Origin: a virus
Taxonomy: Duplodnaviria > Heunggongvirae > Uroviricota > Caudoviricetes
Length of the DNA stretch: 64,000 nt
IMG/VR virus record: IMGVR_UViG_3300018475_000004
Direction: 5' to 3' (one strand)
The translations under genes and the position numbers were made by a program. The notes below the pieces were generated by a model. That model was not told the DNA's origin, ran no database searches, and saw only the letters and a list, made by a program, of their open reading frames with translations. The stretch's first letter is position 1, and each line of letters opens with the position of its first letter. Positions 12,630 to 27,162 of the stretch are shown piece after piece.

Positions 12630-12656
12630 GATTTTTATAAAAAAATATGTTATAAT
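12628..12656 (+). promoter_or_regulatory. Conserved cassette promoter
   Basis: ttgatttttataaaaaaatatgttataat. Confidence 0.7.
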
Positions 12657-12685
12657 ATATATAAAGAAATGAAAATATGGACAAA

Positions 12686-12722
12686 GAATAATAATTGAAC
12701 CCCGACTTTTTTCAATTATTAT
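12686..12722 (+). other. 13-bp perfect inverted repeat (aataataattgaa / ttcaattattatt) in the 5'UTR of the endonuclease gene
   Basis: Seen in sequence, between the promoter and the GAAGGAG RBS. Confidence 0.4.
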
Positions 12723-12738
12723 AGAAGGAGTTGATTAT

Positions 12739-13468
12739 TTGGGAAGAAAACCAAGAGATTTTTCTATTGAAACAATAGGATAGCTACAACCATTATATAT
12801 AGATGAAACAAAACCTCGGGGAAAAGGTCATAATATTTATTGGATTTGTCGCTGTTCTTGCGGTAATTTGACTAGTGTTAATAGCTGCAATCTAAATAGT
12901 GGAATAAAATCTGGACAAAATATGAGTTGTGGAAAATGTCATGCTCAAAGAAATGATTTAACGGGAAATGTTTATGGAAAACTTACCGTTAAAGGTCCAG
13001 ATAATAATTATATTAGCACAGAAGAAAATGGATGGAAAAGTAAGTGGATTTGTGAATGTGAATGCGGTAATATAGTATCTATATTCGGCTCAAATCTAAC
13101 AAGATTACATACAACAAGTTGTGGATGTGCTAATCGTTCTATTGGCGAAGAAAATATTGAATTATTATTAAGAGAAAATAATATTAACTATGCTAAAGAA
13201 TATAGCTTCTCAGATTTAAGAAATAAAAAAAGACTACGATTTGATTTTGCTATTTTTGATAGTAATAATGTCTTGTCTCATTTAATAGAATTTGATGGAC
13301 GTCAACATAGTAACGATTATACTCCATGGGACAATTCCGAAACTTTAGAAGAAAGATAGTATCGTGATAAGTTAAAAAATGAATACTGTAAAAATCATAA
13401 TATTAAACTTATTCGTATTCCTTATGAAAAACGAGATACTTTAACTTTACAAGATTTAGGAGTGTAAT
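12739..13468 (+). CDS. Homing-endonuclease-like protein: two N-terminal Zn-ribbon modules (W-I-C-x-C-x-CG...SCGC) plus a C-terminal DUF559/Vsr-like PD-(D/E)xK nuclease domain; in-frame TAGs at 12781-12783 and 13357-13359
   Basis: GAAGGAG RBS then TTG 12739 (L/MGRKPRD...). It is paralogous to 15776..16513 along its full length. The conserved C-terminal motif 'NIKLIRIPY' lies downstream of the TAG at 13357, matching the paralog's 'INLIRIPY'. Confidence 0.65.
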
Positions 13469-13470
13469 AT

Positions 13471-14325
13471 ATGATAAAAAATTTTATAATTACAGGAGAC
13501 TGTCACGGTGGCATGGGAGTAGTCAATCGGGCAGGTAATATAAATCGGAATATGCCCAATTTTACTCCCACTGAAACTGCAATCATTATTTTAGGCGATA
13601 GTGGTCTAAATTTTTGGTTAAATAAAACTGATAAAAAATATAAGAAACTGTCCTGCGTATATGGCTATACCTTCTACTGCGTTCGGGGTAATCATGAAGA
13701 GCGGCCTGAAAACTTGGGTTATAAAGTAGAATATGATCCCAATGTGGATGGCGCAGTCTATGTAGATAAAGACTTCCCCAATATTCGGTATTTTGTTGAT
13801 GGTAATGTCTACACTCTCAACAATCATAAGTGCTTGGTTGTTGGCGGTGCTTATTCTGTTGACAAGTGGTATCGGTTGAAGCGGGTTGAAGGTACAAAGG
13901 AACATCCTGGCTGGTTCCCCGATGAACAGCTTACTGAAGCTGAAATGCGGGCGATTATGAACAATACTACCGGAAAAGAGTTTGACTTTGTATTCTCTCA
14001 CACTTGTCCTATCTCTTGGGAGCCTCGGGACTTGTTTATCGGCGGCATTGACCAGTCTATGGTCGATAAGACCATGGAAGTCTGGATGGATAAGTTGAAG
14101 GATAACTTCACTTGGAAATGCTGGTGCTTTGGTCATTATCATGCCGACCGGATTGAACGGCCTTGCGTAGAACAGTTCTATAACGACTATGAGGACTTGG
14201 AGAACATCTGGAATCGGTGGTACGACAAAGAAACTTACTGTCTTGAGTGGTGGCTGCCCAAGAGTCCTTATATGGAATGGTGGGACTTAGAAAATGAAGC
14301 TAAAAGTAAAGAAGCTAACGATTAA
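13471..14325 (+). CDS. Calcineurin-like metallophosphoesterase (GDCHGG / ILGDSG / RGNHE motifs)
   Basis: RBS aggagtg; motifs seen; TAA stop. Confidence 0.7.
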   Translation: MIKNFIITGDCHGGMGVVNRAGNINRNMPNFTPTETAIIILGDSGLNFWLNKTDKKYKKLSCVYGYTFYCVRGNHEERPENLGYKVEYDPNVDGAVYVDKDFPNIRYFVDGNVYTLNNHKCLVVGGAYSVDKWYRLKRVEGTKEHPGWFPDEQLTEAEMRAIMNNTTGKEFDFVFSHTCPISWEPRDLFIGGIDQSMVDKTMEVWMDKLKDNFTWKCWCFGHYHADRIERPCVEQFYNDYEDLENIWNRWYDKETYCLEWWLPKSPYMEWWDLENEAKSKEAND

Positions 14326-14569
14326 GTCCATGGGAATTTCTGTGCTCCTGGCTACAATGCTAACTGTCTGCATTGCATTTTTATCTCTTATGGGATATGG
14401 TGTATTGTGGGGCATATTGGTTGCGGTCTTGTATCCGGTCGCTGAAGCAGGACGCAAGTTCTATCAAGAGAACAAATGCCGTCATATGACTGAGTTTGTT
14501 GAAAAGCTCATGGAAAAGACTATCGAAGAAGAACCAATATCTTCAATCAATGAAGACCCTTATTGGTAA
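14294..14569 (+). CDS. Small membrane protein (the start may instead be ATG 14330)
   Basis: Hydrophobic ORF overlapping the end of the metallophosphoesterase gene; TAA stop. Confidence 0.35.
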   Translation: MKLKVKKLTIKSMGISVLLATMLTVCIAFLSLMGYGVLWGILVAVLYPVAEAGRKFYQENKCRHMTEFVEKLMEKTIEEEPISSINEDPYW

Positions 14570-14573
14570 GATA

Positions 14574-14603
14574 AAGACCCTGTGGCATCCATAGGGTCTT
14601 TAT
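14574..14603 (+). terminator. Terminator hairpin (aagaccct...agggtctt); the T-run is interrupted
   Basis: Seen in sequence. Confidence 0.5.
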
Positions 14604-14632
14604 TGATTTTTATAAAAAAATATGATATAATA
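14604..14632 (+). promoter_or_regulatory. Conserved cassette promoter
   Basis: ttgatttttataaaaaaatatgatataat. Confidence 0.7.
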
Positions 14633-14660
14633 TTTATGTAAGATAAGGGAGGGAAAAGAA

Positions 14661-14909
14661 ATGAAAAAAATAAATCCTTATGAAGTAAGTAGAATGTTCA
14701 GAAAACTGAAATACGATCATCCTTACTTTCATACAATGGCAAAATCGTTTTTCATCATCATGGCGGTACTAATTGCCTTTTTAATTTTCCTTCTGCCGCA
14801 GGCATTATGCGTTTGGCTGAATGCTCCGGATTGCATTTTCCTGTATCTACTGGTAATTCCCTTCCTTTTGGGTTATGCCCATTTCGCAATTGATTGTTTA
14901 GACTACTAA
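14661..14909 (+). CDS. Small membrane protein (82 aa)
   Basis: RBS agggaggg; hydrophobic. Confidence 0.45.
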   Translation: MKKINPYEVSRMFRKLKYDHPYFHTMAKSFFIIMAVLIAFLIFLLPQALCVWLNAPDCIFLYLLVIPFLLGYAHFAIDCLDY

Positions 14910-14927
14910 GAAAAGGAGTTTGATACT

Positions 14928-15674
14928 ATGGCTATTCCCGGAATTTATCCTCAGTTCCAGCATTGGTGTAAGAACACCGTCTGGATGTATTCCGATCCTC
15001 ACTTCGGTGATAAGGATCTCGCCAAGAGCATCAAGAAGCGTCCTTCTGACGCCGAACATATCGCCAAGATCAATTCCAAGGTTGGTAGAAAGGATACTTT
15101 GATTCTCCTGGGTGATGTAGGCGATATTGAATGCGTGCGCCAGCTCCGTGGTTATAAGGTTCTAGTCATGGGCAATCATGATGTGGGCCGCACTAACTAT
15201 GAGCGTAAGATCGTCGAAGAAATCTACGATCAGGACGAGTGGACTCAGGACGAGGTTGTTGTCGATATGACTAAGAAGTATCCCGGTTGGAAGATCTGGG
15301 TTACTGAGCAGTGGGAGTTCCATGCTCCTTTCCAGAGATGGGTGGCTCATGCCGATAACTGCCTCTTTGACGAGGTCTATGAGGGCGCTCTGATTATCGG
15401 TGAGAAGATTATTCTGACCCACGAACCCGTTGATATTCCCTGGCTGTGGAACTTCCACGGTCATGACCATGCTGGCGCTTTCCGTGCCAACCATACCAAT
15501 GTTTGTTCCGATGCTTGCGGCTATGAGCCTCTGCATCTGAACTCCTTCCTCAACAAGTTCGGCATTTCTTCCAAAATCACTTCCATTCACCGCATGGCTA
15601 TTGATGGCGCCATTGAGCGTAAGGCAAAGCGCGGTGGTAAGAAGATTGCGGCAGCCAGGTCAGCCGACCGCTGA
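14928..15674 (+). CDS. Calcineurin-like metallophosphoesterase (SDPHFG / LLGDVGD / MGNHD / GHDH)
   Basis: AAAGGAG RBS; motifs seen; TGA stop. Confidence 0.7.
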   Translation: MAIPGIYPQFQHWCKNTVWMYSDPHFGDKDLAKSIKKRPSDAEHIAKINSKVGRKDTLILLGDVGDIECVRQLRGYKVLVMGNHDVGRTNYERKIVEEIYDQDEWTQDEVVVDMTKKYPGWKIWVTEQWEFHAPFQRWVAHADNCLFDEVYEGALIIGEKIILTHEPVDIPWLWNFHGHDHAGAFRANHTNVCSDACGYEPLHLNSFLNKFGISSKITSIHRMAIDGAIERKAKRGGKKIAAARSADR

Positions 15675-15775
15675 ACCGGAGTTCCGCAATTCTTTGGACG
15701 AAACATTATAATTTCTATTTCGTCAAACTTATATATAGTAGAGAAAAAATACTATGACGAAATGAGGTAAATGTT

Positions 15776-16513
15776 ATGGGAAGAAAAATTGATTTAACTG
15801 GAAAGGTTTTTGGAAAATTAACCGTTATAAAAGAACATTCTGAGCGCACTCCACAAGGTTCTGTTCAGTGGATATGTAAATGTGAATGCGGAAAATCTAC
15901 CATCGTATCGGGAGACAATCTTCGTCGCAACCATACTTTAAGTTGTGGTTGTCTGCAAAAAGAATCTGCCCAAAAGCGAGTAATAGATTTAACGGGGCAA
16001 CGATTTGGTAAATTGGTAGTCACAGGCAAGGCTCCAAATCCTACAGGAGGAAAAAATAGACATTCTTTTTGGTATTGTGATTGTGATTGTGGGAATAGTT
16101 CTTTAATTAAAGATGGAGAAAATATTAAGCGAGGTTTAACCATTTCCTGTGGATGTATTGGTACCTCTAAAGGTGAATATCAAATCCAAGAATTGCTAGA
16201 ATATTATAATATTGAATTTGAAAAAGAAAAAACCTTTGATACTTGTATATTTCCCGATACACAAGCCAAAGCACGATTTGATTTTTATTTACCGACCTAT
16301 AATATAGTAATTGAATTTGATGGTTATCAACACTTCTATTTTACAGGATATGAATGGAATACAGAAGAAAATTATCTTAAAACCATTGAAAAAGATAATT
16401 TTAAGACTAAATGGTGTAAGGATAATGGGATTAATTTAATTAGAATACCCTATACTCACTTATCTACACTTAAAATAGATGATTTATTAGAAAATAGTCG
16501 TTTTATGTTATAA
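15776..16513 (+). CDS. Homing-endonuclease-like protein (Zn-ribbon modules plus DUF559/Vsr-like PD-(D/E)xK), paralog of 12739..13468, with no internal TAG
   Basis: 'WICKCECG...SCGC' occurs twice; 'IEFDGYQH...NLIRIPY' is present. The gene is AT-rich. Confidence 0.7.
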   Translation: MGRKIDLTGKVFGKLTVIKEHSERTPQGSVQWICKCECGKSTIVSGDNLRRNHTLSCGCLQKESAQKRVIDLTGQRFGKLVVTGKAPNPTGGKNRHSFWYCDCDCGNSSLIKDGENIKRGLTISCGCIGTSKGEYQIQELLEYYNIEFEKEKTFDTCIFPDTQAKARFDFYLPTYNIVIEFDGYQHFYFTGYEWNTEENYLKTIEKDNFKTKWCKDNGINLIRIPYTHLSTLKIDDLLENSRFML

Positions 16514-16526
16514 AGGAGAATTAATT

Positions 16527-17309
16527 ATGGCAGTTCATGATGATCTCGGAAATAGAATGAAAACTTATTACGAGGCGGTGCCTAAACATCGCCTCGTAAG
16601 ACGGATGCCTGTGGCAATTCGTATAGATGGAAAAGCATTTCATACTTTTACCAGAGGATTTCAAAAACCTTTTGATGAGGTATTAGGAAATGCTATGGTA
16701 AGAACTATGGAATATTTAGCGAAAAATATTCAAGGATGTGTTTTTGCTTATCAGCAGTCCGATGAAATCACTCTCCTGCTGATTGACTACCAGAAACTCA
16801 CCAGCTCCGCCTGGTTTGATTATGAAATTCAGAAGATGTGTTCCATCTCTGCTTCTATGGCAACCATGGCTTTCAATAAATATTTCCAGGAGGAAGTTCA
16901 GAAGCACATCGACAGCACTGAACCAATCTTCATTACTGATGAAGAGATCAAGCTGATTGATACTTATTCTCGAGCCGCTGAAAAAGGTGCAATGTTTGAC
17001 TCCCGATGCTTCAACATTCCCAAGGAAGAAGCCTGTAACTTGGTCTATTGGCGCCAGTTGGACGCCACCCGCAACTCCATTCAGATGGTCGGTCAGGCAA
17101 ATTATTCTCATGCTGTCCTGCAGGGTATGTGCTGCCAGAACATCAAGACCATGCTGGAAGTGGATAAAGGAATTATCTGGGGTAATTACCCCACTCGCTG
17201 GAAGCGTGGCACCGCATGGAGACGCGACATCGGCGTTGACTATGAAATGCCCATTCTCAAAGGCGAGGACCGCAAGTATGTTGACGACGTGATTTATGTG
17301 GGTGAGTGA
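16527..17309 (+). CDS. Thg1-like protein (tRNA-His guanylyltransferase family; 3'-5' nucleotide addition / tRNA 5'-end repair)
   Basis: 'VAIRIDGKAFHTFTRGFQKPFDEVLGNAMVRTMEYLAKNIQGCVFAYQQSDEITLLL' matches the Thg1 core (VRIDGRxFHxF...KPND...AYGQSDE). Confidence 0.6.
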   Translation: MAVHDDLGNRMKTYYEAVPKHRLVRRMPVAIRIDGKAFHTFTRGFQKPFDEVLGNAMVRTMEYLAKNIQGCVFAYQQSDEITLLLIDYQKLTSSAWFDYEIQKMCSISASMATMAFNKYFQEEVQKHIDSTEPIFITDEEIKLIDTYSRAAEKGAMFDSRCFNIPKEEACNLVYWRQLDATRNSIQMVGQANYSHAVLQGMCCQNIKTMLEVDKGIIWGNYPTRWKRGTAWRRDIGVDYEMPILKGEDRKYVDDVIYVGE

Positions 17310-17698
17310 TTATGAAAAGACTAATCACTCTCCTACTGGCGCTCTGTCTACTATTGACTCTATGCGGTTGTGAACTACGGACCGCAAATGTAGTAAATAC
17401 AACTGCTGAAGCGGTTGATGCTATCGTATATGACTGCTCCATCGATAATTGGGGTTATCGTTATGTATGGGTAGCATATGGCCCTTGTAAAACTCGATGG
17501 ATTGACGAATGGGGCGTACACGAACAATACAAAGATAATTTAGGTAGCACTATTCGTTGTTACCTAATTACTCACGAATATGATGATGGTAGTGTGAAAT
17601 ACTCCCTCGTCTATAATGAAACATTACATAAAGGTATTCCCGAAGGTGAACCTATTCACCCCGAAGACTATACATTTCCAGAAGGAGTAGATGAGTAA
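17306..17698 (+). CDS. Lipoprotein (lipobox LTLCGC)
   Basis: Signal peptide with lipobox. Confidence 0.5.
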   Translation: MIMKRLITLLLALCLLLTLCGCELRTANVVNTTAEAVDAIVYDCSIDNWGYRYVWVAYGPCKTRWIDEWGVHEQYKDNLGSTIRCYLITHEYDDGSVKYSLVYNETLHKGIPEGEPIHPEDYTFPEGVDE

Positions 17699-18085
17699 AT
17701 GAAAAAGATTTTCGCTTTTATCCTCGCGCTATGTATGATTTTCAGTCTGGTTGCTTGCGGCGGCGAGCCTGAGATCGAAATTGAGCCGACTGAAACAGAA
17801 GCTATCGCATATGCGGTTACTGAACCTGTAGTAGAAGAGACTTTACCTCCCATAACAGAAGCTCCGACAGAAGAAACAGTTGGATTTGTTCCCTCTCCCG
17901 AGGCGACAATTCCCGATGAAGAGACTTTCCCTCCTGAGGATCAGGAAGAGGTAATTGACCCTATTGTATATGTCACTAAATCTGGAGAAAAATACCATAC
18001 TGAATCTTGCCGTTGGGGAGATATCCCCATGCTTTTATCTGAAACAATCGCCGCAGGATATGACTCTTGTGATAAATGTTTCTAA
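17699..18085 (+). CDS. Lipoprotein (MKKIFAFILALCMIFSLVACGG), acidic Pro/Glu/Thr-rich linker, C-terminal Cys/His motif
   Basis: Signal and lipobox present; paralog of 18389..18943 at the N-terminus. Confidence 0.55.
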   Translation: MKKIFAFILALCMIFSLVACGGEPEIEIEPTETEAIAYAVTEPVVEETLPPITEAPTEETVGFVPSPEATIPDEETFPPEDQEEVIDPIVYVTKSGEKYHTESCRWGDIPMLLSETIAAGYDSCDKCF

Positions 18086-18097
18086 GGAGGAAATGAA

Positions 18098-18370
18098 ATG
18101 AAAACTCGCAATCTGATTTTTGCAATTCTGTGGGCACTGCTCGCAATTCTGATGGCTGTATGTGCAGTCGCCCAGTGGACGCGCGCAGAATACTGGGCCG
18201 TAGTAATCGCTGCGATGGCTTTTGGCTGTGATTCTTATAATGCCTGGACTCAGCTTGGCTATTGGTTGGAAGCTCGTAAAGCGCTAAAGCGAACCAAGAC
18301 AGAAATTTTCGCTGAATATGATAAAACTATGGCTGAATGGGAGCGTGGCTTCCAGGATGTCACTGAATAA
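18098..18370 (+). CDS. Small membrane protein (90 aa)
   Basis: RBS aaggagg; 2 TM. Confidence 0.45.
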   Translation: MKTRNLIFAILWALLAILMAVCAVAQWTRAEYWAVVIAAMAFGCDSYNAWTQLGYWLEARKALKRTKTEIFAEYDKTMAEWERGFQDVTE

Positions 18371-18388
18371 ATAAAAGAGGTAAAAGAT

Positions 18389-18943
18389 ATGAAAAAGATT
18401 TTCGCATTTATCCTGGCCCTGTGTATGGTATTCTCTCTGGTTGCCTGCGGCGGTGATGAAACGATCACCGTAACTGAAACCATGACTGCTCCGCCTACTA
18501 CTGAGTATGTTGAGGTTGTAGAAACTACTCTGCCGCTCGAAACAACCAATGAGTTCATTCCTTCTCCCGAAGCACCGATTCTGGACTTTGACATTACCGG
18601 TTTTGATATCGTTGAAGACTATGAAGGCAATCCTGCTCTGGTCGTATATCTAATTTGGACTAACACCACTGAAGAGACCACCATGTTCGCTACTACTTAT
18701 GGCGTCAGTGCTTTCCAGGATGGTATTGGTCTAGATCCTGCAATTTTGATTTTAGATGATGACATTGCAAAGCAGTATGATCATGCTATGACTGAGATTC
18801 GTCCTGGTGCTACCATTGAAGTTATGACTTCCTTCGCTTTGCGAAGCGATAATCCTATTGTTGAAGTTGAAGTTGCTCCCTGGATTTCTTTTGATGGTAA
18901 GCCTTTGATGCTTCTCACCATTGACACTTCCGCAAAAGGCTAA
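18389..18943 (+). CDS. Lipoprotein (MKKIFAFILALCMVFSLVACGG...), DUF4352/DUF5067-like C-terminal domain
   Basis: Signal and lipobox present; N-terminus nearly identical to 17699..18085. Confidence 0.55.
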   Translation: MKKIFAFILALCMVFSLVACGGDETITVTETMTAPPTTEYVEVVETTLPLETTNEFIPSPEAPILDFDITGFDIVEDYEGNPALVVYLIWTNTTEETTMFATTYGVSAFQDGIGLDPAILILDDDIAKQYDHAMTEIRPGATIEVMTSFALRSDNPIVEVEVAPWISFDGKPLMLLTIDTSAKG

Positions 18944-18958
18944 GTCCCGATAAAATAT

Positions 18959-18988
18959 AAGCCCTTCCCATTCGGAAGGGCTTATTTG
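18959..18988 (+). terminator. Terminator hairpin (aagcccttcc...ggaagggctt)
   Basis: Seen in sequence. Confidence 0.6.
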
Positions 18989-19014
18989 ATTTTTATAAAA
19001 AAATATGATATAAT
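18986..19014 (+). promoter_or_regulatory. Conserved cassette promoter
   Basis: ttgatttttataaaaaaatatgatataat. Confidence 0.7.
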
Positions 19015-19052
19015 ATATATAGAAAATGAGAAAGTAAGGGAGGAGCATAATA

Positions 19053-19958
19053 ATGGAAGAAAATGTAATTATTATGGAAGATGAGGCCCAGGAAGCTCTC
19101 AATGATTTCGAGGCTACTGTTGCCGATGTGGTAGTCCTCGATGGTGTAAAAGCCTATCTGAAGTCTATCGGTAATCACCCCCGTTTGAATTTTGACCAGG
19201 AGAAAGAATTGAGCGTAAAGGCGCTCAAGGGCGACCAGGACGCAATCAATGAACTGGTAAGCTGTAATCTACTTCTGGTTGTTCCCATCGCAAAGAGATA
19301 TTATGGTTGCGGTCTGCCCCTGCTTGATCTCATCCAGGAGGGCAATCTCGGTCTGATAAAGGCCGCTCAGAAGTATGATGGTACTAAGGGTTGGAGATTC
19401 TCTACCTATGCTACCTACTGGATTCGCCAGTCTATTTCTCGTGCGCTCGGTGACCAGTCTCGCACCATTCGCATTCCCGCAAATATGGTTGAGCTTCTGG
19501 GCAAAATCCGCAAGGCAACCAATGAACTACTTCTGAAAAATCATCGTCAGCCGACCGATGAAGAAATCGCCAAGTATCTGAATGAAGATTTGGAAAAGGT
19601 TCAGACCATTCTGGACATTTCTCAGGCAGTATCTTCTCTGGATGTGGCCGTTGATGAAGACGGTGAAACCAGTGTTGGTGACCTGGTAGCAGACCATAAT
19701 GCTGAAAGTGGCTACGGCAACCTTGTCAAGGAAGCTAACAGCCAGATTGTCCGTGCGGTTCTGGATACTCTTCCCACTCGTGAAGGTGAGATTATGAAGA
19801 TGCGTTTCGGCATTGACCACGAGAAGGCAATGACCCTAGAAGAAGTTGGTAAGGTCTACGGCATTACCAAGGAACGTATTCGTCAGATCGAAAATAAGGC
19901 AATTCGCAAGTTGCGGCATCCCGCTCGTGCGAGAATGCTGAGGGAGGCTATGGCATAA
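19053..19958 (+). CDS. Sigma-70 family RNA polymerase sigma factor (RpoD/SigA-like; regions 2, 3 and 4 present)
   Basis: 'LLLVVPIAKRYYGCGLPLLDLIQEGNLGLIKAAQKYDGTKGWRFSTYATYWIRQSISRAL' is region 2. 'TLEEVGKVYGITKERIRQIENKAIRKLR' is region 4.2. Confidence 0.8.
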   Translation: MEENVIIMEDEAQEALNDFEATVADVVVLDGVKAYLKSIGNHPRLNFDQEKELSVKALKGDQDAINELVSCNLLLVVPIAKRYYGCGLPLLDLIQEGNLGLIKAAQKYDGTKGWRFSTYATYWIRQSISRALGDQSRTIRIPANMVELLGKIRKATNELLLKNHRQPTDEEIAKYLNEDLEKVQTILDISQAVSSLDVAVDEDGETSVGDLVADHNAESGYGNLVKEANSQIVRAVLDTLPTREGEIMKMRFGIDHEKAMTLEEVGKVYGITKERIRQIENKAIRKLRHPARARMLREAMA

Positions 19959-20035
19959 TGGAATGGTGGGCAATAATTCCGTGGATTTTTATCGGCCTAG
20001 TTTTGATGGCCGCCTGCGCAGGATAAGGAGATAAC

Positions 20036-20395
20036 ATGAAAAGATATACTATTTGTTGGCTGATAATTTTGATTATCGTACTCTGTATTGGCACTTTGGC
20101 TGCTTGTTCTGCCACTCAAGTTGTTGATGGCGCAGAGGTTGAAGTTATTGATAATCGTTTTGCCATAATTGAGGAAATTGAATATGGCAATTATGTCGTG
20201 TATGATATCAATACCAGAGTTGTACTCTATATTGAAACTGCTGGACATGGTGGTTATCTAACCCCTTACCAGATTTATAAGGACGGCGCAATTTATGGTG
20301 CCATATATGAAAACGGTCAAATTGTCGCAAAGCCTTATGCAATGGGCATTACCGAGGAAATGATTGGTAATTATTTCAATAAGATTTTTGGATAA
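20036..20395 (+). CDS. Lipoprotein (lipobox LAACS)
   Basis: Signal peptide and lipobox. Confidence 0.5.
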   Translation: MKRYTICWLIILIIVLCIGTLAACSATQVVDGAEVEVIDNRFAIIEEIEYGNYVVYDINTRVVLYIETAGHGGYLTPYQIYKDGAIYGAIYENGQIVAKPYAMGITEEMIGNYFNKIFG

Positions 20396-20400
20396 TAAAT

Positions 20401-20427
20401 GGCTCCTTCGGGAGCCATTTTTCTTTT
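20401..20427 (+). terminator. Terminator (ggctcc ttcg ggagcc plus T-run)
   Basis: Seen in sequence. Confidence 0.7.
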
Positions 20428-20511
20428 ATCTGCTCCGGCCGCTGACACTGAGACAACCGACACCCCAAATCTAAAAGCGATTTAGAAATTTTCTAACCAA
20501 AAACCTTCTTT

Positions 20512-20540
20512 TTGATTTTTATAAAAAAATATGATATAAT
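20512..20540 (+). promoter_or_regulatory. Conserved cassette promoter
   Basis: ttgatttttataaaaaaatatgatataat. Confidence 0.7.
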
Positions 20541-20579
20541 ATATATACAAAGGTAAGAAAAGAAAGGAATTGATAAAAA

Positions 20580-21491
20580 ATGAAATTTTTCATGGACTTT
20601 GAAGCAACCCGTTTCTCTAACCGCATTATCAGCATTGGTTGTGTAGCCGAAAATGGTAGCACATTCTCAACTCTGGTTCATCCCGGTAAGAAAAAGGTTG
20701 ATAAGTTTATCACCGAGCTGACTGGCATTACCAATGAAATGCTGGAAAATGCTCCCAGCGCCGATCAGGCATTTCTGGATTTTTACGATTTCGTCGTTTC
20801 TAACTTTGATGAAGAGCCTCCCGAGTATTATGTTTATGGCAACTGCGACAGCTCTTTCCTCCACGCGACTGCTCGCAAAATGACCATCCCCAAGGCTATC
20901 ATCTTTGCACAGGCACTCGCCGGTAATTTGATCGACTATGCTTCTACTGTGAAACAGTTCTTCGTTGCCAAGAATGATCTGGCTCTGCGGAAAGTCTATA
21001 TGCTGGTCCAGGATGAAAAGGATCTGGTCCAGAAGCACGATGCTCTGGAAGACGCTCGGATGCTCTGCACCGTTGTTGAGCATCTTTATGAGAAGTGTAA
21101 GCCGGAGGATAAGGAAACTATCCTGTCCATGCCCTCTCAGCCCAAGCCCTTCCCTCGCGGAAGCAAGGTTCATCCCCTATTCATTCAGTGGGAGCGTGAA
21201 AAGAAGTGGGCGGCAACCACCGGCGCAAATAAGGATAACTGGGTAGTCAAGGCTATCGATAAGGACAATGGTGCAACCCTGTATTTCCCTGACTGGAACA
21301 TCGCTGCTCTGTGGATTGTCAAGTATATCGCTCGCAATATCTCCCCCAAGAAGGAAGAGCAGATGAAGAAGGTTATCAGCGCAATCCAGTCTGCTCCTCA
21401 GACCGGTAAGTGCCGATATAACTGCTATTGGGAATATAATCCCGAGGGCGCAATCACAATGGTTGCCAAGAGTGAAAGTGGTGAAAAGTAA
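20580..21491 (+). CDS. DEDDh 3'-5' exonuclease (DnaQ-like) with a C-terminal extension
   Basis: Exo I motif 'MDFEAT'; Exo III motif 'HDALEDAR'. Confidence 0.65.
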   Translation: MKFFMDFEATRFSNRIISIGCVAENGSTFSTLVHPGKKKVDKFITELTGITNEMLENAPSADQAFLDFYDFVVSNFDEEPPEYYVYGNCDSSFLHATARKMTIPKAIIFAQALAGNLIDYASTVKQFFVAKNDLALRKVYMLVQDEKDLVQKHDALEDARMLCTVVEHLYEKCKPEDKETILSMPSQPKPFPRGSKVHPLFIQWEREKKWAATTGANKDNWVVKAIDKDNGATLYFPDWNIAALWIVKYIARNISPKKEEQMKKVISAIQSAPQTGKCRYNCYWEYNPEGAITMVAKSESGEK

Positions 21492-21775
21492 TGAAAACCA
21501 TAACTGTGGGCGAGCTAATCGCCAAGCTTCAGGAGCATCCGCCTCATGTGCCGGTGTTCGTCTATGATATCGACAAAGAACGAGACCTCGCTATTGAGGT
21601 TGTGGAACTTGCGGGACCCCATCTTGAACCCGACGAGTGCGGGATCATTTCCGATATGTCCCCGTATTACTGTAAGGGTTATTCCCGCATTGAAGAGCAT
21701 TGGGGCAGAGAGGGCAAACAGCCTATCATTTGCCTCCGTGAAAAAACATACAGAGAACAGAAGAAAGGAGAGTAA
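21491..21775 (+). CDS. Hypothetical protein (94 aa)
   Basis: ATG overlaps the preceding TAA. Confidence 0.45.
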   Translation: MKTITVGELIAKLQEHPPHVPVFVYDIDKERDLAIEVVELAGPHLEPDECGIISDMSPYYCKGYSRIEEHWGREGKQPIICLREKTYREQKKGE

Positions 21776-21778
21776 TGT

Positions 21779-23242
21779 ATGTCTTACTGTGGATACATCA
21801 CCAATCTAATGAATGTGCGTGAGCACGGCAACGCAGATAATCTGGTTCTAGCAACCTGCTTTGAGAACACCGTCTGTGTTGCAAAGGATAAGTATTTTGA
21901 AGGACAGCTGGGTGTTTACTTCCCCGTAGACGGTCAGTTGTCTATGGAGTTCTGTGAAAAGAACGGCTTGCTGGCAGTCTATGATGAGTTCGGCAAGAAT
22001 ATCTCCGGCGGATACCTAGACCCCGCCAAGCGCAATGTGCGCGCAATCAAGCTTCGCGGTGAGCAGTCCGATGGTCTGTTCCTGCCTATCGAGTGTCTGG
22101 CTTACACCGGCGCTAAGCTGGATGAACTGACTCCTGGCACTCCTATCACCGTGCTAAACGGTCATGAAATCTGTCAGAAATATATCCCTCGTGGCAAGAA
22201 TAAGGGTAATGGTGTGAAGCGTCACGCTGGCCAGAAGCTAAAGCGTAAGAATATGGCACCTACTTTCTTCGAACACAAGGATACTGAGCAGTTGGTTTAC
22301 CATCTGAGCGAATTCAAGCCCGGTGACTACATCGAAATCACCCGTAAGCTACATGGCACTTCTGGCCGTACTGCATTTGTCCAGTCTTTTGATGGACATT
22401 CTTATACTACCAATAACATTTTCCACAAGTTCTTGGGTAAGATTCTGCCTGCGGCAAAGGCTCAGAAGTTTGCGGAAAAGCACTGCACTCCTGTGTTTGA
22501 TTACGACATCGTAACCGGCACTCGTCGTACTATCCTGGATAGCTTCGATGGTGGTTTCTACGGCTCTAATGAGTTCCGTAAGCAGTACCATGACTTCTTC
22601 AAGGGTAAGCTGTGGAAGGGTGAAACTATCTACTACGAAATCGTTGGCTTTACTCATGATGGTACTCCTATCATGAGCACCTGCTCCAATGAGAAGTTGA
22701 AGGATAAGGCTTTCGTAAAGCAGTATGGTAAGGTCACTACCTTCTCTTACGGCTGCGATCCAAAGGGAGTTGCGGTTGCTGGAGTTGCCGATCCTTCTAA
22801 CCCCGATACCGCATTCAGCGTGTCCAAGCCTCAGAGCGATATCTACGTATACCGTATGACCATGACCAACGAAGATGGCCAGGTTGTGGAGTACACTCCC
22901 GACTTTATGCGTTACCGTTGTATGTACATGGGCGTCAAGACTGTGCCTGTCCACTGGGCCGGTTTTATCCCCGACGAGGAAGTTTTCACCGGAACTTCTT
23001 GCGAGCTGACTGACGCAGGCCAGTTCGTACTGGAAAAGGCTGAACAGTTCTTCGATGGTCCCGAGCCTATCGACCCCACTCATATCCGTGAGGGTGTCGT
23101 AGTTCGTGTAATCAATCGTCCTACTTTTACTGCTTATAAGCATAAGAACTTCAATTTCAAGGTTTTGGAAGGCATTATCAAAGACACTGCCGAAGCACCT
23201 GATATGGAAGAGGCTGATGGCTTAGATGAAGCAGGCGAGTAA
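21779..23242 (+). CDS. ATP-dependent RNA ligase, Rnl2/Rnl5-like (N-terminal domain plus nucleotidyltransferase with a K-x-H-G motif)
   Basis: 'ITRKLHGTS' fits ligase motif I (KxHGxN). 'ETIYYEIVG' fits an EG(Y/F)V-like motif IV. A roughly 190-aa N-terminal extension resembles the DraRnl/NgrRnl architecture. Confidence 0.5.
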   Translation: MSYCGYITNLMNVREHGNADNLVLATCFENTVCVAKDKYFEGQLGVYFPVDGQLSMEFCEKNGLLAVYDEFGKNISGGYLDPAKRNVRAIKLRGEQSDGLFLPIECLAYTGAKLDELTPGTPITVLNGHEICQKYIPRGKNKGNGVKRHAGQKLKRKNMAPTFFEHKDTEQLVYHLSEFKPGDYIEITRKLHGTSGRTAFVQSFDGHSYTTNNIFHKFLGKILPAAKAQKFAEKHCTPVFDYDIVTGTRRTILDSFDGGFYGSNEFRKQYHDFFKGKLWKGETIYYEIVGFTHDGTPIMSTCSNEKLKDKAFVKQYGKVTTFSYGCDPKGVAVAGVADPSNPDTAFSVSKPQSDIYVYRMTMTNEDGQVVEYTPDFMRYRCMYMGVKTVPVHWAGFIPDEEVFTGTSCELTDAGQFVLEKAEQFFDGPEPIDPTHIREGVVVRVINRPTFTAYKHKNFNFKVLEGIIKDTAEAPDMEEADGLDEAGE

Positions 23243-23322
23243 TCCAGCACTGGCGGTCGCTGCCTGGGCGGCCGCCCATCCCCTCCCCACAGGCACAGTA
23301 CCAAGAGGAAGAGTGAAGAAAA

Positions 23323-23523
23323 ATGAATCTACTACAATCCCCCGAGTATATGGTTTTCGACCTGATGGAGGAGTATGCCACCTATCTATACAACTACCCG
23401 AAATTCATCGTGCCAAAAGGCTCTATATATGTATTTCGGATTCGCCAATTAGATGCTGTGTGGATAAAGGTCGGAGACGGCGAAAATGCTCTAATTGATT
23501 TACCCCATATCGTTGCTCAGTAA
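23323..23523 (+). CDS. Hypothetical protein (66 aa)
   Basis: RBS agaggaag; TAA stop. Confidence 0.4.
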   Translation: MNLLQSPEYMVFDLMEEYATYLYNYPKFIVPKGSIYVFRIRQLDAVWIKVGDGENALIDLPHIVAQ

Positions 23524-23535
23524 GGAGGTAGCACA

Positions 23536-24192
23536 ATGGCTAACGTTGAAAAAATGTATACCTATCTCAGAGGTTATCTAATCGGCGCAAATATGAAGCA
23601 GTCCATCACCGCTTTGCAGTTCGCCCGTGAACATCACAGTGGGCAGACTCGCAAAGATGGAACGCCTTATATTGTTCATCCCCTGTCAATGGCCTGCTAT
23701 GCCGTGGCTCTTGGCTTGCGCGATGATAATATCATTGCTACCATCCTACTTCATGATACCGTAGAAGATTGCGGTGTGCGGCCCGAGTATCTGCCGGTAA
23801 ACGATACTGTTAAGCGTGCGGTTCAGTATATGACTATCACTAAGTTCGATACTGACTTAGATAAAATTGAAACAAAATGCCGTTATTTCAATGAACTCCT
23901 TGACTGCCGGGAAGCTTTGATTTGTAAGGCTCTTGACAGATACAACAACCTAGGCGATATGCCCATATCCTTTACCAAAGATGCCATGGGTAAAAATGTC
24001 GCAGAAACAGAGGTTCTGTTGCTCCCCGTATTGAAACGGGCAAAGGAGAGATATGCTGACTTGGCGGACATTTTATTTATTCTCCGCACGAATATTAGCA
24101 CTCTCAATGAGGCTATCAAAGTTCAGTGTTATGATGAATACACCCGATGGGCGTATATCTATAAGAGGGAAGATAAGAATGAACATTCTTAA
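23536..24192 (+). CDS. HD-domain (p)ppGpp hydrolase-like protein (RelA/SpoT hydrolase domain; small alarmone hydrolase family)
   Basis: 'HSGQTRKDGTPYIVHPLSMA...ATILLHDTVEDCGV' is the canonical SpoT/Mesh1 HD motif. Confidence 0.7.
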   Translation: MANVEKMYTYLRGYLIGANMKQSITALQFAREHHSGQTRKDGTPYIVHPLSMACYAVALGLRDDNIIATILLHDTVEDCGVRPEYLPVNDTVKRAVQYMTITKFDTDLDKIETKCRYFNELLDCREALICKALDRYNNLGDMPISFTKDAMGKNVAETEVLLLPVLKRAKERYADLADILFILRTNISTLNEAIKVQCYDEYTRWAYIYKREDKNEHS

Positions 24193-24382
24193 AGCTCCAC
24201 CTCCTCCTCCACCTCCCGCTAAAGTGGGAGTGTGGAAATGGACTCCAGAAGGTAATCGAATATGTTCTAATTGCGGAATGCTTGAACCTGACTGTCTGCC
24301 CGGTGGCTCTGTCATATGGGACGATGAGAAGCGTTATTGTTTCCGTTGCGGAACCCGTTTATTATTCCCAAAGGACACCTAA
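24179..24382 (+). CDS. Small Pro-rich / zinc-ribbon protein (PPPPPPP...CSNCG...CFRCG)
   Basis: ATG 24179 overlaps the previous gene; two CxxC pairs. Confidence 0.4.
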   Translation: MNILKAPPPPPPPAKVGVWKWTPEGNRICSNCGMLEPDCLPGGSVIWDDEKRYCFRCGTRLLFPKDT

Positions 24383-24396
24383 AAAGTGTCCTTTTT
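24372..24396 (+). terminator. Terminator (ggacac...gtgtcc plus T5)
   Basis: Seen in sequence. Confidence 0.6.
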
Positions 24397-24423
24397 GATT
24401 TTTTACAAAAAATATGTTATAAT
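24395..24423 (+). promoter_or_regulatory. Conserved cassette promoter (variant)
   Basis: ttgattttttacaaaaaatatgttataat. Confidence 0.65.
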
Positions 24424-24463
24424 ATATATGTAAAGAATAAGAGATATGAATGGAGAGGATACT

Positions 24464-25096
24464 ATGGGTAAGTACACTAAGAAGAGTAATTCTACTAAGC
24501 GCCGTCGTCGTCAAATCGCCCAGATTCAGAGAATCACAGTTTATGTCTTGATTCTCGTAATCACCATCATGATTACTTCAATTTCCCAGCGAGTCAAGTA
24601 TAAAAATCAAATCAAAGAACTGAATGAACTCCACCAGGAGGGCATGATTGCTCTGCGAATTGAGCTGCGAGATGAATATGAATCTGAAATCGCTGCGATT
24701 GAGAAATATTACGAATATGGTGGCGATGTAGAACAGATTGAACTGGAAGCCGAGTGGATCGCACGGGTTATGTATGGTATGTACAAGCCTGACCACAAGG
24801 ATTCTGACCTGCGCGCAATCGTCTGGTGTATTCTGAACCGTGTTGACAACAGAGCTTATCCCGGAGAAATCCAGGCTGTATGTCAGCAGGCTAAGCAGTG
24901 GATGGGTTATTCCGATGATAACCCCGTGCTGGCTAAGCTGTATGACATCGCTTTGACCGAACTAAAGAGCTGGCATAATGGCGTTCCTCGCCCCATGACC
25001 GCAGACTTCGTATATCTGACTTGGTCTTCCAAGGAGATTTTACTGCGCGACACATTTGAGGAAAACCGCAACACTAACTACTGGCGCATGAACTAA
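24464..25096 (+). CDS. Membrane-anchored SleB-like cell-wall hydrolase (Hydrolase_2 family)
   Basis: N-terminal TM segment; 'AIVWCILNRVDNRAYPGEIQAVCQQAKQW' matches the SleB domain motif. Confidence 0.55.
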   Translation: MGKYTKKSNSTKRRRRQIAQIQRITVYVLILVITIMITSISQRVKYKNQIKELNELHQEGMIALRIELRDEYESEIAAIEKYYEYGGDVEQIELEAEWIARVMYGMYKPDHKDSDLRAIVWCILNRVDNRAYPGEIQAVCQQAKQWMGYSDDNPVLAKLYDIALTELKSWHNGVPRPMTADFVYLTWSSKEILLRDTFEENRNTNYWRMN

Positions 25097-25157: not shown

Positions 25158-25191
25158 ATATGTATAAAGAATAAGGAAGGAATTGAAAAAT

Positions 25192-25791
25192 ATGGAAAAG
25201 ATTAAGGTAGTCATTGTCGTTGATATGCAGAGGGACTTTATCGATGGCGCACTGGGTACTCCCGAAGCCCAGGCTATCGTTCCTCTGGTTGCGGAAACCA
25301 TTCATCAACTTGCTGATCCCAATACCGCTATCATCTTCACCAAGGATACTCATACCGATGACTATATGAATACTCTGGAAGGTAAGAACCTGCCCGTTCC
25401 TCATTGCATCGAAGGCACCGCTGGCTATGGCATCGTCGATGAAGTCTTTGAAGCCTGGATTCATCATGCCCAGGGCGAAAATCGCTATATGTCCGGTTAT
25501 GATGCATATCCCGTTTATGACGAGAACCCCATCCGCGTCAAGAAGCCTACTTTTGGCTCTGTTGAACTGCAGAATATTCTGTATGATATGAATGACCGCT
25601 TTGAAATCGAGGAAATCACTCTGATGGGCGTATGCACTGGCATCTGCGTCCTGTCCAATGCAATTCTGTGTAAGGCAACTCTGCCCGAAGTTCCTGTCAA
25701 TGTCGTTGCTGACTGCTGCGCTTGCGTGACTCCTGAGTCCCACAAGACCGCCCTGGAAGCAATGAAGCTGTGCCAGATCAACATTATCTAA
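25192..25791 (+). CDS. Cysteine hydrolase of the isochorismatase family, probable nicotinamidase (PncA-like)
   Basis: 'VVDMQRDFIDGALG' and 'GVCTGICV' give a D-K-C triad arrangement. Confidence 0.6.
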   Translation: MEKIKVVIVVDMQRDFIDGALGTPEAQAIVPLVAETIHQLADPNTAIIFTKDTHTDDYMNTLEGKNLPVPHCIEGTAGYGIVDEVFEAWIHHAQGENRYMSGYDAYPVYDENPIRVKKPTFGSVELQNILYDMNDRFEIEEITLMGVCTGICVLSNAILCKATLPEVPVNVVADCCACVTPESHKTALEAMKLCQINII

Positions 25792-25803
25792 GGAGGATAG
25801 CCA

Positions 25804-26634
25804 ATGATTAGAGTAGGTAATATTTCTATTCGTAGCGGTCAGTCCATGTTCCCCGATCACTCTTTGCTTATCAAGCTCAATCCAGAAGAGATGTTTGATA
25901 ACAGAGGCGCCATCAAGGTGGAATGGCTTTATGAAGACGATAGCGAACTCTTCACTCTAATCTGCGTGAAGCGTCATATCGACCGCCACTTTGGCAACAC
26001 CGATGTTGTTCTGGATATGCCCTACATTCCCCACGCTCGCATGGATCGAGTAAAGTCTGATTCTGACGTCTTTACTCTGAAGTATTTCTGCGAGATTATT
26101 AACTCTCTGAACTTCAAGATTGTTTGGGTGCGGGACGCCCATAGCAACGTGAGCCTGGCTCTGCTTGATCGAGTAGAGGATACTGGTGTTGAGCCTTATA
26201 TTCATAAGGCTACTCTGGCTTCCAAGGCTGAAGTTCTGTTCTTCCCCGATGAGGGCGCAATGAAGCGCTACTCTGATAAGTCCCCTCTACCTTATGCTTT
26301 TGGTATGAAAAAGCGAGACTGGGCTACTGGCAAGATTTTAGGTCTAGATATTATCAATGCCGAGAACATCAAAGACAAAGATGTTCTGATTGTTGATAAT
26401 ATTTGCTCCAGAGGTGGCACTTTCTACCACTCCGCAAAGGCTTTGCTGGAAGCAGGTGCCAAGAGCGTAAGTCTGTATGTGACCCACCTGGAAGAAACTG
26501 TTACTCTTGGCGATCTGCCCGAGTCCGGTCTGATCAAGCATATCTATACCACTGAATCCATTTTCCCCCAGATGCTGATTGATGGTCCCTATGACGGTGC
26601 TGGCTGGGGCGGTTGGATTACTATATTTCACTAA
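25804..26634 (+). CDS. Ribose-phosphate pyrophosphokinase (Prs) family protein, short form; either a PRPP synthetase or an ADPR-pyrophosphokinase (Adps-like)
   Basis: 'MPYIPHARMDRV' matches Prs 'IPYFGYARQDRR'. 'VLIVDNICSRGGTFYHSAKALLEAGAKSV' matches Prs '[28 protein letters not shown]'. Confidence 0.65.
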   Translation: MIRVGNISIRSGQSMFPDHSLLIKLNPEEMFDNRGAIKVEWLYEDDSELFTLICVKRHIDRHFGNTDVVLDMPYIPHARMDRVKSDSDVFTLKYFCEIINSLNFKIVWVRDAHSNVSLALLDRVEDTGVEPYIHKATLASKAEVLFFPDEGAMKRYSDKSPLPYAFGMKKRDWATGKILGLDIINAENIKDKDVLIVDNICSRGGTFYHSAKALLEAGAKSVSLYVTHLEETVTLGDLPESGLIKHIYTTESIFPQMLIDGPYDGAGWGGWITIFH

Positions 26635-26652
26635 GAAAGGAGCATACTCCAA

Positions 26653-27161: not shown

Positions 27162-27162
27162 A

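Follow-up and report, generated by a model that had tools for sequence, protein, structure and literature searches.

A Thg1-like protein and an Rnl5-family RNA ligase in a dispersed, predicted RNA-repair gene set of an uncultivated gut phage

Does a phage that encodes both a Thg1-like protein (TLP) and an RNA ligase carry an RNA-repair system, and if so, what kind of damage would it be directed against? This question is raised by a 64-kb stretch of phage DNA (IMG/VR record IMGVR_UViG_3300018475_000004; the whole stretch is called the window here), which is part of a larger phage and reads normally in genetic code 11. An earlier inspection of the letters alone (the sequence-only reading) had proposed an RNA-repair toolkit consisting of a Thg1-like enzyme, a DEDDh exonuclease, an RNA ligase of Rnl2/Rnl5 type and, further downstream, a kinase-phosphatase pair, with which the phage could heal and seal broken tRNAs as T4 Pnkp and Rnl1 do. 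The open reading frames (ORFs) of the first three, coding for 260, 303 and 487 residues, respectively, lie on the plus strand where that reading had placed them, and an AAGGAG-type ribosome-binding site precedes each. We consider it probable, at moderate confidence, that the enzymes encoded here are genuine and belong to a dispersed set of RNA-repair genes, which would keep tRNAs and translation working under attack by host RNases. The existence of the genes, the families they belong to, their conserved catalytic residues, the fold of the ligase, the promoter class and the recurrent co-localisation in related viruses are read directly from the data.

The first of these gene products is Thg1-like, as had been claimed. 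It matches the Pfam family PF04446 (Thg1) with an E-value of 9.1e-30 (103.7 bits, where the cut-off is 29.2) and phrog_4717, 'tRNA-His guanylyltransferase', with 1.5e-81; among solved structures it aligns end to end with the Thg1-like protein of B. thuringiensis, BtTLP (PDB 4kgk, 2e-52), followed by an archaeal TLP (5axk, 2.3e-9) and by chains deposited as tRNA(His) guanylyltransferase (5xox, 3otb and 3wbz, about 2e-4). The carboxylates D34, within RIDGKAFH, and D79/E80, within QSDEIT, align with their counterparts in 4kgk, 5axk and 5xox and are invariant in eight diverse phage TLPs, among them those of Bacillus, Vibrio and Fusobacterium phages; the metal-binding catalytic carboxylates of human Thg1 are D29, D76 and E77. 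At the position where 5xox carries DTHINNLY the phage protein reads DATRNSIQ, as does BtTLP, and the HINNLYN motif of Thg1 is linked to specificity for tRNA-His. Because the protein is nearest to BtTLP, possesses the carboxylates and has DATRNSIQ in place of HINNLY, we classify it as a bacterial-type TLP rather than a tRNA-His-specific Thg1. By homology it should act as a template-dependent 3'-5' polymerase that repairs 5'-truncated tRNA, an activity described for TLPs (PMC4820378, PMC3701042). With BtTLP (4kgk/4kgm) and with other bacterial and archaeal TLPs it shares the motifs RIDGxxFH, QSDE(I) and WRQxDAxxNS as well as a similar length; it differs from BtTLP in about 30 extra residues (approximately 123-155), which are kept throughout the phage clade, and in being phage-encoded and set among end-healing genes, its activity being predicted from sequence. 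Thg1 proper, adding G-1 to tRNA-His, is an unlikely identity, as the sequence is of TLP type and tRNA-His genes are scarce nearby: they account for 3 of the 319 tRNA genes in the loci fetched from related viruses, none of them near the ligase, and these three are too few and too odd to interpret.

The sequence-only reading had called a Thg1-like enzyme in a phage unusual. Such genes are indeed uncommon, but their rarity was overstated: TLP genes are present in 163 of 50,697 GenBank phage records, including Bacillus phage G and phages of Fusobacterium, Vibrio, Aeromonas and Caulobacter, and on at least 518 IMG/VR contigs; they have a PHROG of their own; and they are mentioned in a paper of 2013, which noted a Thg1 homologue in Bacillus phage Bc431v3 (PMC3601020), and again in 2021 (PMC7824862).

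The ligase required profile and structure comparisons for its placement. As a single sequence it matches phrog_968, 'RNA ligase', with 1.3e-59 and stays below the Pfam cut-offs (PF21189, the OB domain, 1.5e-5; PF09414, 9.6e-4), and the single-sequence PDB search gave a match to Naegleria gruberi NgrRnl that was not significant (0.09). A scan of 1.84 billion representative proteins yielded 2108 relatives, and a profile built from 51 of them, 34-86% identical to the query, found NgrRnl (5cot) as the sole significant PDB match (7.4e-9), with T4 Rnl2 at 0.78. The profile alignment covers NgrRnl residues 8-177, beginning in the N-terminal domain and reaching motif I, where K190 of the phage enzyme falls on the NgrRnl nucleophile K170. 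The DraRnl model TIGR02306 (RNA_lig_DRB0094) matches residues 9-203 with 4.1e-15; since its score of 55.5 bits falls far under the equivalog cut-off of 151.15, the ligase represents a divergent, mostly viral subfamily (phrog_968) and not a DraRnl orthologue. The KxHG motif of the earlier claim is present as KLHGTS at residues 190-195, and K190, G193, S195, R197, E287, G290, E438, G439, K454 and K456 are invariant in all 51 homologues; we take E287/G290, E438/G439 and K454/K456 to be motifs III, IV and V.

An AlphaFold2 model based on the alignment of the 51 diverse homologues reached a pLDDT of 88.7; an earlier model from 22 close homologues (pLDDT 59.5) was discarded. In a Foldseek search with the later model, the top 13 PDB matches were all NgrRnl, the best of them full-length with an E-value of 1.5e-16 and a target TM-score of 0.61. 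T4 Rnl2, REL1 and archaeal Rnl3 aligned over the nucleotidyltransferase core only, on the order of 1e-6 or worse (T4 Rnl2: 6.6e-7, query TM-score 0.29). Past motif V the chain continues for about 30 acidic residues with a pLDDT below 50, and there is no C-terminal domain. An N-terminal OB domain and the nucleotidyltransferase motifs without a C-terminal domain are the defining features of the Rnl5 family (PMC4408790), and we therefore assign the protein, on its sequence and predicted fold, to Rnl5 as an enlarged and divergent member. The proposed N-terminal extension resembling that of DraRnl and NgrRnl is thus borne out by the profile, by TIGR02306 and by the fold, and of the label 'Rnl2/Rnl5-type' the second half stands. 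Membership in Rnl2, with T4 Rnl2 and the kinetoplastid RELs, is ruled out by the presence of the N-terminal OB domain, the lack of a C-terminal domain and the weaker fold match to T4 Rnl2, which the protein resembles only in its nucleotidyltransferase core. With NgrRnl and DraRnl it has in common the succession of OB and nucleotidyltransferase domains, the lack of a C-terminal module and the aligned lysine nucleophile; in contrast to NgrRnl it measures 487 instead of 340 residues (147 more), carries insertions in the nucleotidyltransferase domain at about 198-246 and 295-352, and reads KLHG rather than KLDG in motif I. KLHG is also motif I of T4 Rnl2.

The characterised Rnl5 enzymes, NgrRnl and DraRnl, seal duplex nicks whose 3'-OH strand is RNA, and viral homologues were noted when the family was defined (PMC4408790); the functions of the family have been called 'uncharted' (PMC5397189). 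Ligases of the type described here occur in 364 phage records, many of them actinophages. Some metagenomic homologues of 600-813 residues (P0126, P0131, P0150) contain inteins just after motif I, at about residue 197, recognisable by Intein_splicing/Hint signatures with or without a LAGLIDADG endonuclease.

The gene between TLP and ligase codes for a DEDDh exonuclease, as had been proposed: its product matches Pfam RNase_T (6.5e-14, 53.2 bits against a cut-off of 24) and carries all five DEDDh residues, namely D6 and E8 (Exo I, DxE), D90 (Exo II) and H153 and D158 (Exo III, Hx4D). Its C-terminal extension of about 135 residues matched no family. The nearest named families in NCBIfam and PHROG are DnaQ/PolC/KapD-type domains, so that its substrate may be RNA or DNA. 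At 21491 the sequence ATGA holds both the exonuclease stop and the start codon of a 94-residue ORF, which has homologues in close relatives only and ends four bases ahead of the ligase start; because of this overlap and the four-base gap, exonuclease, small ORF and ligase appear to be translationally coupled. The HD-domain protein encoded after the ligase matches Pfam HD_4 (8.2e-9) and, in its HD region only, TIGR00691 (spoT_relA, 3.7e-15), and in the relative L001 an HD gene likewise lies beside the ligase. Hydrolases of this type can undo the effects of toxic RelA/SpoT homologues, some of which pyrophosphorylate the 3' end of tRNA, and the HD protein could thus contribute another tRNA-protecting function.

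Enzymes that could prepare RNA ends for such a ligase are encoded on either side of it. The kinase and the phosphoesterase gene overlapping its end form the pair that the sequence-only reading had pointed out, and both are real by their Pfam, PHROG, PDB and NCBIfam matches. The kinase, with the P-loop GPSGCGKS, matches AAA_33 (2.5e-15), phrog_505, 'polynucleotide kinase' (5e-18), and the kinase region of TIGR04075 (bacter_Pnkp, 2.9e-9). In the PDB it matches best (8.4e-5) the 171-residue chains deposited as 'Metallophosphoesterase' (4gp6/4gp7/4jst), which represent the kinase domain of the C. thermocellum Pnkp; T4 polynucleotide kinase (1ly1) comes next, at 2.4e-4. Among the scanned ORFs of the window, exactly four genes for calcineurin-like metallophosphoesterases (MPEs) were identified. 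MPE_36890, adjacent to the kinase gene in most relatives, is a candidate 3'-end healing enzyme, and the NinI-like MPE, which accompanies the kinase in relatives as well, matches the phosphatase part (positions 176-327) of the fused phrog_8238 profile; the similarity of the phosphoesterases near the kinase to the Pnkp phosphatase module is weak (TIGR04075, 9e-4 for the NinI-like MPE), and a role for them on RNA 2',3'-cyclic or 3'-phosphate ends is putative. MPE_13471 usually adjoins the RlaP-like gene, so that a nucleotidyltransferase-MPE pair is seen in many loci, and the remaining phosphoesterase gene lies directly 5' of the TLP gene in several lineages (L010-L012, L064, L068).

The nucleotidyltransferase of that pair is a divergent RlaP-like protein (RNA-ligase-associating Pol-beta). 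Its own match to PF10127 (RlaP) is sub-threshold (1.6e-3, 18.6 bits against a cut-off of 23), and 9 of 11 members of its family match PF10127, the best with 5.9e-8. G41, S42, D53 and D55 are invariant in the family, and the Pol-beta signature is GS...DxD. Neither the single sequence nor a profile matched a solved structure. An apparent in-frame stop in the nucleotidyltransferase gene of the relative L111 was considered as stop-codon recoding and turned out to be the gene's genuine stop, the BLAST segment having run past it.

Table 1. Coordinates and supporting matches of the features in the 64-kb window.
Feature	Position	Strand	Basis
RlaP-like nucleotidyltransferase, divergent	11433-12317	+	phrog_388 1.5e-17
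HNH/homing-endonuclease gene	12868-13359	+	between RlaP-like nucleotidyltransferase and MPE_13471; phrog_559/374/9084 group
Calcineurin-like metallophosphoesterase MPE_13471	13471-14325	+	Pfam Metallophos 1.2e-10, phrog_1649
Predicted promoter, TLP unit	14603-14631	+	TTGATT-N17-TATAAT with TG extension; after terminator hairpin 14570-14604
Metallophosphoesterase, predicted TLP unit	14928-15674	+	phrog_547 1.5e-21, weak Pfam Metallophos
HNH/homing-endonuclease gene	15776-16513	+	between 14928 phosphoesterase and TLP; phrog_374 4.7e-37, phrog_9084
TLP, bacterial-type Thg1-like protein	16527-17309	+	Pfam, PHROG and PDB matches, phage TLP alignment
Predicted intrinsic terminator, TLP unit end	18957-18985	+	12-bp stem, then T run
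Predicted promoter, exonuclease-ligase-HD unit	20512-20540	+	29-nt motif
DEDDh 3'-5' exonuclease	20580-21491	+	RNase_T match and motif residues
94-residue ORF	21491-21775	+	between exonuclease and ligase; no Pfam/PHROG match
Enlarged Rnl5-family ATP-dependent RNA ligase (predicted)	21779-23242	+	N-terminal OB, nucleotidyltransferase domain with insertions, no C-terminal domain
HD-domain protein, RelA/SpoT hydrolase type (small-alarmone-hydrolase-like)	23536-24192	+	Pfam, TIGR00691
Predicted terminator, ligase unit end	24370-24394	+	terminator scan
NinI/ApaH-like metallophosphoesterase	35366-36094	+	Pfam Metallophos 1.6e-10, phrog_246
Promoter-like motif copy upstream of kinase	36106-36134	+	29-nt motif
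Polynucleotide 5'-kinase	36364-36915 (start ATG 36385 likely)	+	P-loop GPSGCGKS; AAA_33, phrog_505
Metallophosphoesterase MPE_36890, overlaps kinase gene end	36890-37570	+	Pfam Metallophos_2 1e-8, phrog_547 2.2e-45

Two related HNH genes interrupt this region (Table 1), and similar genes occupy varying positions in related loci. The second, next to the TLP gene, is a mobile element and not part of the repair function; at the corresponding site L001 has no gene of matching size or family, and a 286-residue product without a Pfam hit is encoded upstream of its Thg1 gene.

How these genes are transcribed is indicated by a promoter-like, nearly invariant motif of 29 nt, TTGATTTTTATAAAAAAATATGATATAAT, of which 17 sites are distributed from 1615 to 57716 (three are listed in Table 1). 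Written as TTGATT-N14-TGNTATAAT, the motif has 17 copies in the window, all on the plus strand, where 0.1 would be expected, and in the stretch 11000-25000 it often stands directly after a terminator hairpin. It resembles a class of phage promoters with an extended -10 element, by which the accessory region would be divided into transcription units. The predicted TLP unit comprises the 14928 phosphoesterase, the inserted HNH gene, the TLP gene and genes for small lipoproteins and membrane proteins; a predicted third unit comprises exonuclease, 94-residue ORF, ligase and HD gene; and the kinase and its phosphoesterase are located downstream of the motif copy at 36106. TLP, ligase and kinase units thus all begin with the same motif, and TLP and ligase are predicted not to share an operon but to share a promoter class. 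Within the TLP unit, small proteins are encoded at 17306-18943 (+), two of which have the N-terminus MKKIFAFILALCM.FSLVACGG, resembling a lipoprotein signal peptide, and one of which contains DUF5067. A full-length sigma-70-family factor with regions 1.2, 2, 3 and 4 (19053-19958, +) forms a predicted unit of its own between the TLP and ligase units.

The source is a phage of about 180-220 kb originating from gut metagenomes, and its host is probably a Clostridia bacterium. A TLP of identical sequence is listed on 22 contigs, the longest of 220 kb, and 24 contigs carrying this identical TLP were read; a 204-kb relative (L001) has the same gene order as the window and a ligase 86% identical. Among GenBank phages no near-identical DNA to positions 16000-24000 was found, and the phage is known from metagenomes alone. 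Two samples of IMG/VR loci were drawn, 80 anchored on the TLP, from at least 518 viral contigs with a TLP relative, and 80 anchored on the ligase, out of 358 with a ligase relative; each locus extends 10 kb to either side of its anchor and was searched with the window proteins.

Across related viral contigs of 100-230 kb, the repair-type genes keep within 10 kb of one another in many orders, more than 40 of them distinct among the 80 ligase-anchored loci. In that sample the RlaP-like nucleotidyltransferase is found near the ligase in 66 loci, MPE_36890 in 36, the kinase in 35, MPE_13471 in 32, the TLP in 25, the NinI-like MPE in 24 and the DEDDh exonuclease, positioned immediately ahead of the ligase, in 19, while tRNA genes are present in 53. 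Around the 80 TLP anchors the ligase occurs in 14 loci, the kinase in 12, the nucleotidyltransferase in 16, phosphoesterases in 15-17 and tRNA arrays in 14. The arrangements include nucleotidyltransferase-MPE-Rnl5-MPE-MPE-TLP-kinase-MPE-PhoH (L064, L073, L075), NinI_MPE-TLP-kinase-MPE (L089), Rnl5-TLP-nucleotidyltransferase-kinase (L107), Rnl5-HNH-TLP-nucleotidyltransferase with the TLP 955 bp from the ligase (L111), and TLP-MPE-DEDDh-Rnl5-...-kinase-MPE (L037), and in L101, too, the TLP stands next to ligase and nucleotidyltransferase. A scan of bacterial genomes and metagenome-assembled genomes gave the same patterns, mostly on Clostridia-labelled contigs resembling binned phage, with recurring adjacency of TLP and phosphoesterase, and in the unrelated Bacillus phage vB_BcoS-136 a homologous ligase is directly followed by a polynucleotide kinase. 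These observations speak for a common accessory island within which genes are genuinely linked, the linkage being strongest for ligase with RlaP and for kinase with MPE and moderate for the TLP, and do not imply an obligate module.

In some relatives, L109 and L155 among them, as many as 16 tRNA genes form an array that lies a few kb upstream of the ligase. CUA-anticodon tRNAs (tRNA-Pyl according to ARAGORN, possibly amber suppressors) were counted ten times in ligase loci and once in TLP loci, which hints at stop-codon recoding in some relatives. In L001, a protein with a cREC_REC domain (PF20274) is encoded at 1-351, upstream of the repair region; this domain has been proposed as a cyclic-phosphate-processing enzyme linked to RNA ligases (PMC7824862).

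From family membership and neighbourhoods we infer the enzymatic activities, the tRNA substrate, the order of the steps and the purpose of counter-defence. The DEDDh exonuclease would trim broken RNA 3' ends, and the Pnkp-type kinase together with the metallophosphoesterases would convert 5'-OH and 2',3'-cyclic or 3'-phosphate ends into 5'-phosphate and 3'-OH. The RlaP-like protein could then extend damaged 3' ends by one or two nucleotides, as RlaP has been reported to do, with aminoacylation of the repaired tRNA being restored (PMC12776372). The TLP would refill lost 5' nucleotides of the tRNA with the 3' acceptor strand as template, and the Rnl5 ligase would seal the nick between 3'-OH and 5'-phosphate through a K190-AMP intermediate, the likely purpose being to maintain tRNAs and translation when host defence or toxin RNases attack. 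As Rnl5 enzymes need a duplex nick and TLPs act on the acceptor stem, the natural lesion may, by analogy with the characterised enzymes, be situated in base-paired regions or at the tRNA termini and not in the anticodon loop served by T4 Rnl1. A more ambitious version, which we regard as speculative and doubtful, joins TLP, RlaP-like nucleotidyltransferase, DEDDh exonuclease, phosphoesterases, kinase and Rnl5 ligase into a single template-directed pathway of trimming, filling in from both ends and sealing that would rebuild base-paired tRNA parts, especially the acceptor stem, in answer to a class of host defence or toxin nucleases which remove nucleotides from tRNA ends or stems and are not yet described as anti-phage defence. 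If true, it would be the first physiological role for bacterial-type TLPs and Rnl5 ligases.

Several points weigh against an RNA-repair set of this kind. The gap of 4.5 kb between TLP and ligase holds lipoprotein and sigma-factor genes and separates two predicted units, the kinase lies a further 13 kb beyond, and the 29-nt motif also precedes many unrelated genes. About 45 of the 80 TLP loci lack every partner gene within 10 kb. NAD-salvage genes accompany the TLP at rates like those of the repair genes (PncA in 12 and NadE in 10 of 80), and part of the co-localisation may therefore stem from a common early or accessory region instead of one pathway; moreover, the loci are phylogenetically related, so that the neighbourhood counts do not represent independent events. 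A search of the available literature for experimental work on a phage TLP returned none. Scans of the whole 64-kb window gave 0 tRNA genes and no structured RNA in Rfam, so that no local tRNA substrate or structured RNA is tied to the repair genes. Of the proposed toolkit, what stands is a plausible gene set, backed by the neighbourhoods and by the comparative genomics of jumbo phages (PMC7824862); the link between TLP and ligase is loose.

With these points in mind, two other explanations for the same genes have to be weighed. The enzymes might mature or quality-control the phage's own tRNAs, for instance by adding G-1 to tRNA-His or by mending mis-processed 5' and 3' ends, and have no part in counter-defence. 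The tRNA arrays near ligase and TLP in related loci fit this explanation, as does the proposal made in phage genome papers that phage Thg1 and nucleotidyltransferase modify phage or host tRNAs (PMC3601020, PMC6292376). In Vibrio phage 1.170.O, about 1.3 kb separate the TLP gene from a gene with the tag COG0617, presumably the CCA-adding/poly(A) polymerase group. What makes it rather unlikely is that the protein is of TLP type, closest to BtTLP and without the HINNLY stretch of 5xox, that tRNA-His genes are as scarce as stated above, that the window itself is devoid of tRNA genes and that normal tRNA maturation needs no end healing by kinase and phosphoesterase.

Alternatively, the genes may be functionally independent and have no more in common than their location in an accessory or early region, with ligase and exonuclease working on replication or repair nicks (RNA 3'-OH to DNA 5'-phosphate) and the TLP unrelated to them. 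The nicked duplexes that NgrRnl and DraRnl seal have RNA as their 3'-OH strand, and loss of DraRnl renders D. radiodurans sensitive to ionising radiation, the physiological substrates being unknown (PMC4408790, PMC5397189); the best NCBIfam and PHROG matches of the exonuclease are proofreading domains of DnaQ/PolC type, and the separate transcription units and the equally frequent NAD genes point the same way. Yet the ligase is strongly tied to the RlaP-like nucleotidyltransferase and to a polynucleotide kinase (66 and 35 of 80 loci), the TLP abuts ligase, nucleotidyltransferase or kinase in several independent gene orders, and the phage encodes its own NAD-dependent DNA ligase, with its replication genes at a distance, at 44-64 kb. 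We thus judge this explanation improbable. That the ORFs are chance or decayed frames without function is refuted by conservation and has practically no probability left: E-values range from 1e-30 to 1e-80, catalytic residues are invariant in homologues that are 35-86% identical, homologues number in the thousands and the identical TLP recurs on many contigs. The dispersed RNA-repair set hence remains the reading that we favour.

The surrounding genes of the window deserve a brief description. Between ligase and kinase, at 25183-33563 (+), lies a dense NAD+/ADP-ribose cluster with genes for a nicotinamidase-like isochorismatase, a Prs-like phosphoribosyltransferase, YqeY, Sir2, NAMPT, Macro, NAD synthetase, NADAR and an NMNAT-like cytidylyltransferase. 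Relatives, too, have this cluster near their repair genes, and it probably restores NAD+ and removes ADP-ribose signals, as described for other phages (PMC7824862). Two SPFH/Band-7 proteins and a PhoH-like ATPase (34151-35095, 38057-39589 and 40436-41722, +) flank the kinase-phosphoesterase pair; SPFH2 and PhoH follow this pair in many related loci, and in Fusobacterium phage FNU3 a prohibitin gene is located near the TLP gene. At 6923-9424 (+), an 833-residue homologue of the eukaryotic major vault protein is encoded, with Pfam matches to MVP_shoulder (8.4e-22) and Vault_3 (1.5e-8) and a match of query residues 320/426-785 to major vault protein chains in the PDB (4hl8/4v60, 1.1e-25). Such a homologue seems unusual in a phage, and the word 'vault' is absent from the jumbo-phage survey (PMC7824862).

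How does the gene set compare with known repair systems? With T4 Pnkp and Rnl1 (and Rnl2), which act against PrrC, it shares a phage-encoded 5'-kinase homologous to T4 Pnk, a putative 3'-phosphoesterase and a predicted ATP-dependent ligase. The analogy drawn by the sequence-only reading thus holds for the logic of healing and sealing and is loose beyond it: the ligase is of Rnl5 type and not Rnl1, the phosphatases are calcineurin-like and not HAD-type, kinase and phosphatase are separate genes, genes for TLP, RlaP-like protein and DEDDh exonuclease are additional, and the lesion may lie in duplex regions or at the acceptor end in place of the anticodon loop. The phage kinase matches the kinase region of bacterial Pnkp (TIGR04075; C. 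thermocellum), and the NinI-like MPE matches the phosphatase part of the fused phrog_8238 profile, whereas here the modules are split over separate genes and the ligase belongs to a different family. As in the RlaP-linked RNA-repair operons of cells, an RlaP-like nucleotidyltransferase accompanies the ligase, as the family name implies. No Hen1-annotated gene was present among the scanned ORFs, in which no search was aimed at Hen1.

The closest precedent comes from Iyer et al. (2021, PMC7824862). Comparing jumbo-phage genomes, they described RNA-repair kits in which RNA ligases are combined with polynucleotide kinase, phosphatases of calcineurin-like and HD type, RlaP, CCA-adding enzymes and, 'sporadically', Thg1; they treated these together with genes for NAD+ synthesis and Macro/NADAR and read them as counter-defence. 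In components and interpretation the present gene set agrees with that survey and is an example of the kind already described there. It differs in that the ligases of the survey are mainly Rnl1 and Rnl2, with 'rare divergent versions' in actinophages, while the ligase here is Rnl5-like, and in that it comes from an uncultivated clade of gut phages in which the TLP is common. What is added is that the ligase of an abundant gut-phage clade and of many actinophages is Rnl5-like, and that in this clade the TLP is common and physically interleaved with end-healing genes.

For what bacterial-type TLPs and Rnl5 ligases do physiologically, the clade offers a testable hypothesis, namely refilling from both ends followed by sealing, along with a compact set of enzymes for reconstitution. 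If confirmed, this would extend phage tRNA repair beyond the model of T4 Pnkp and Rnl1 and would point to host nucleases that attack tRNA ends.

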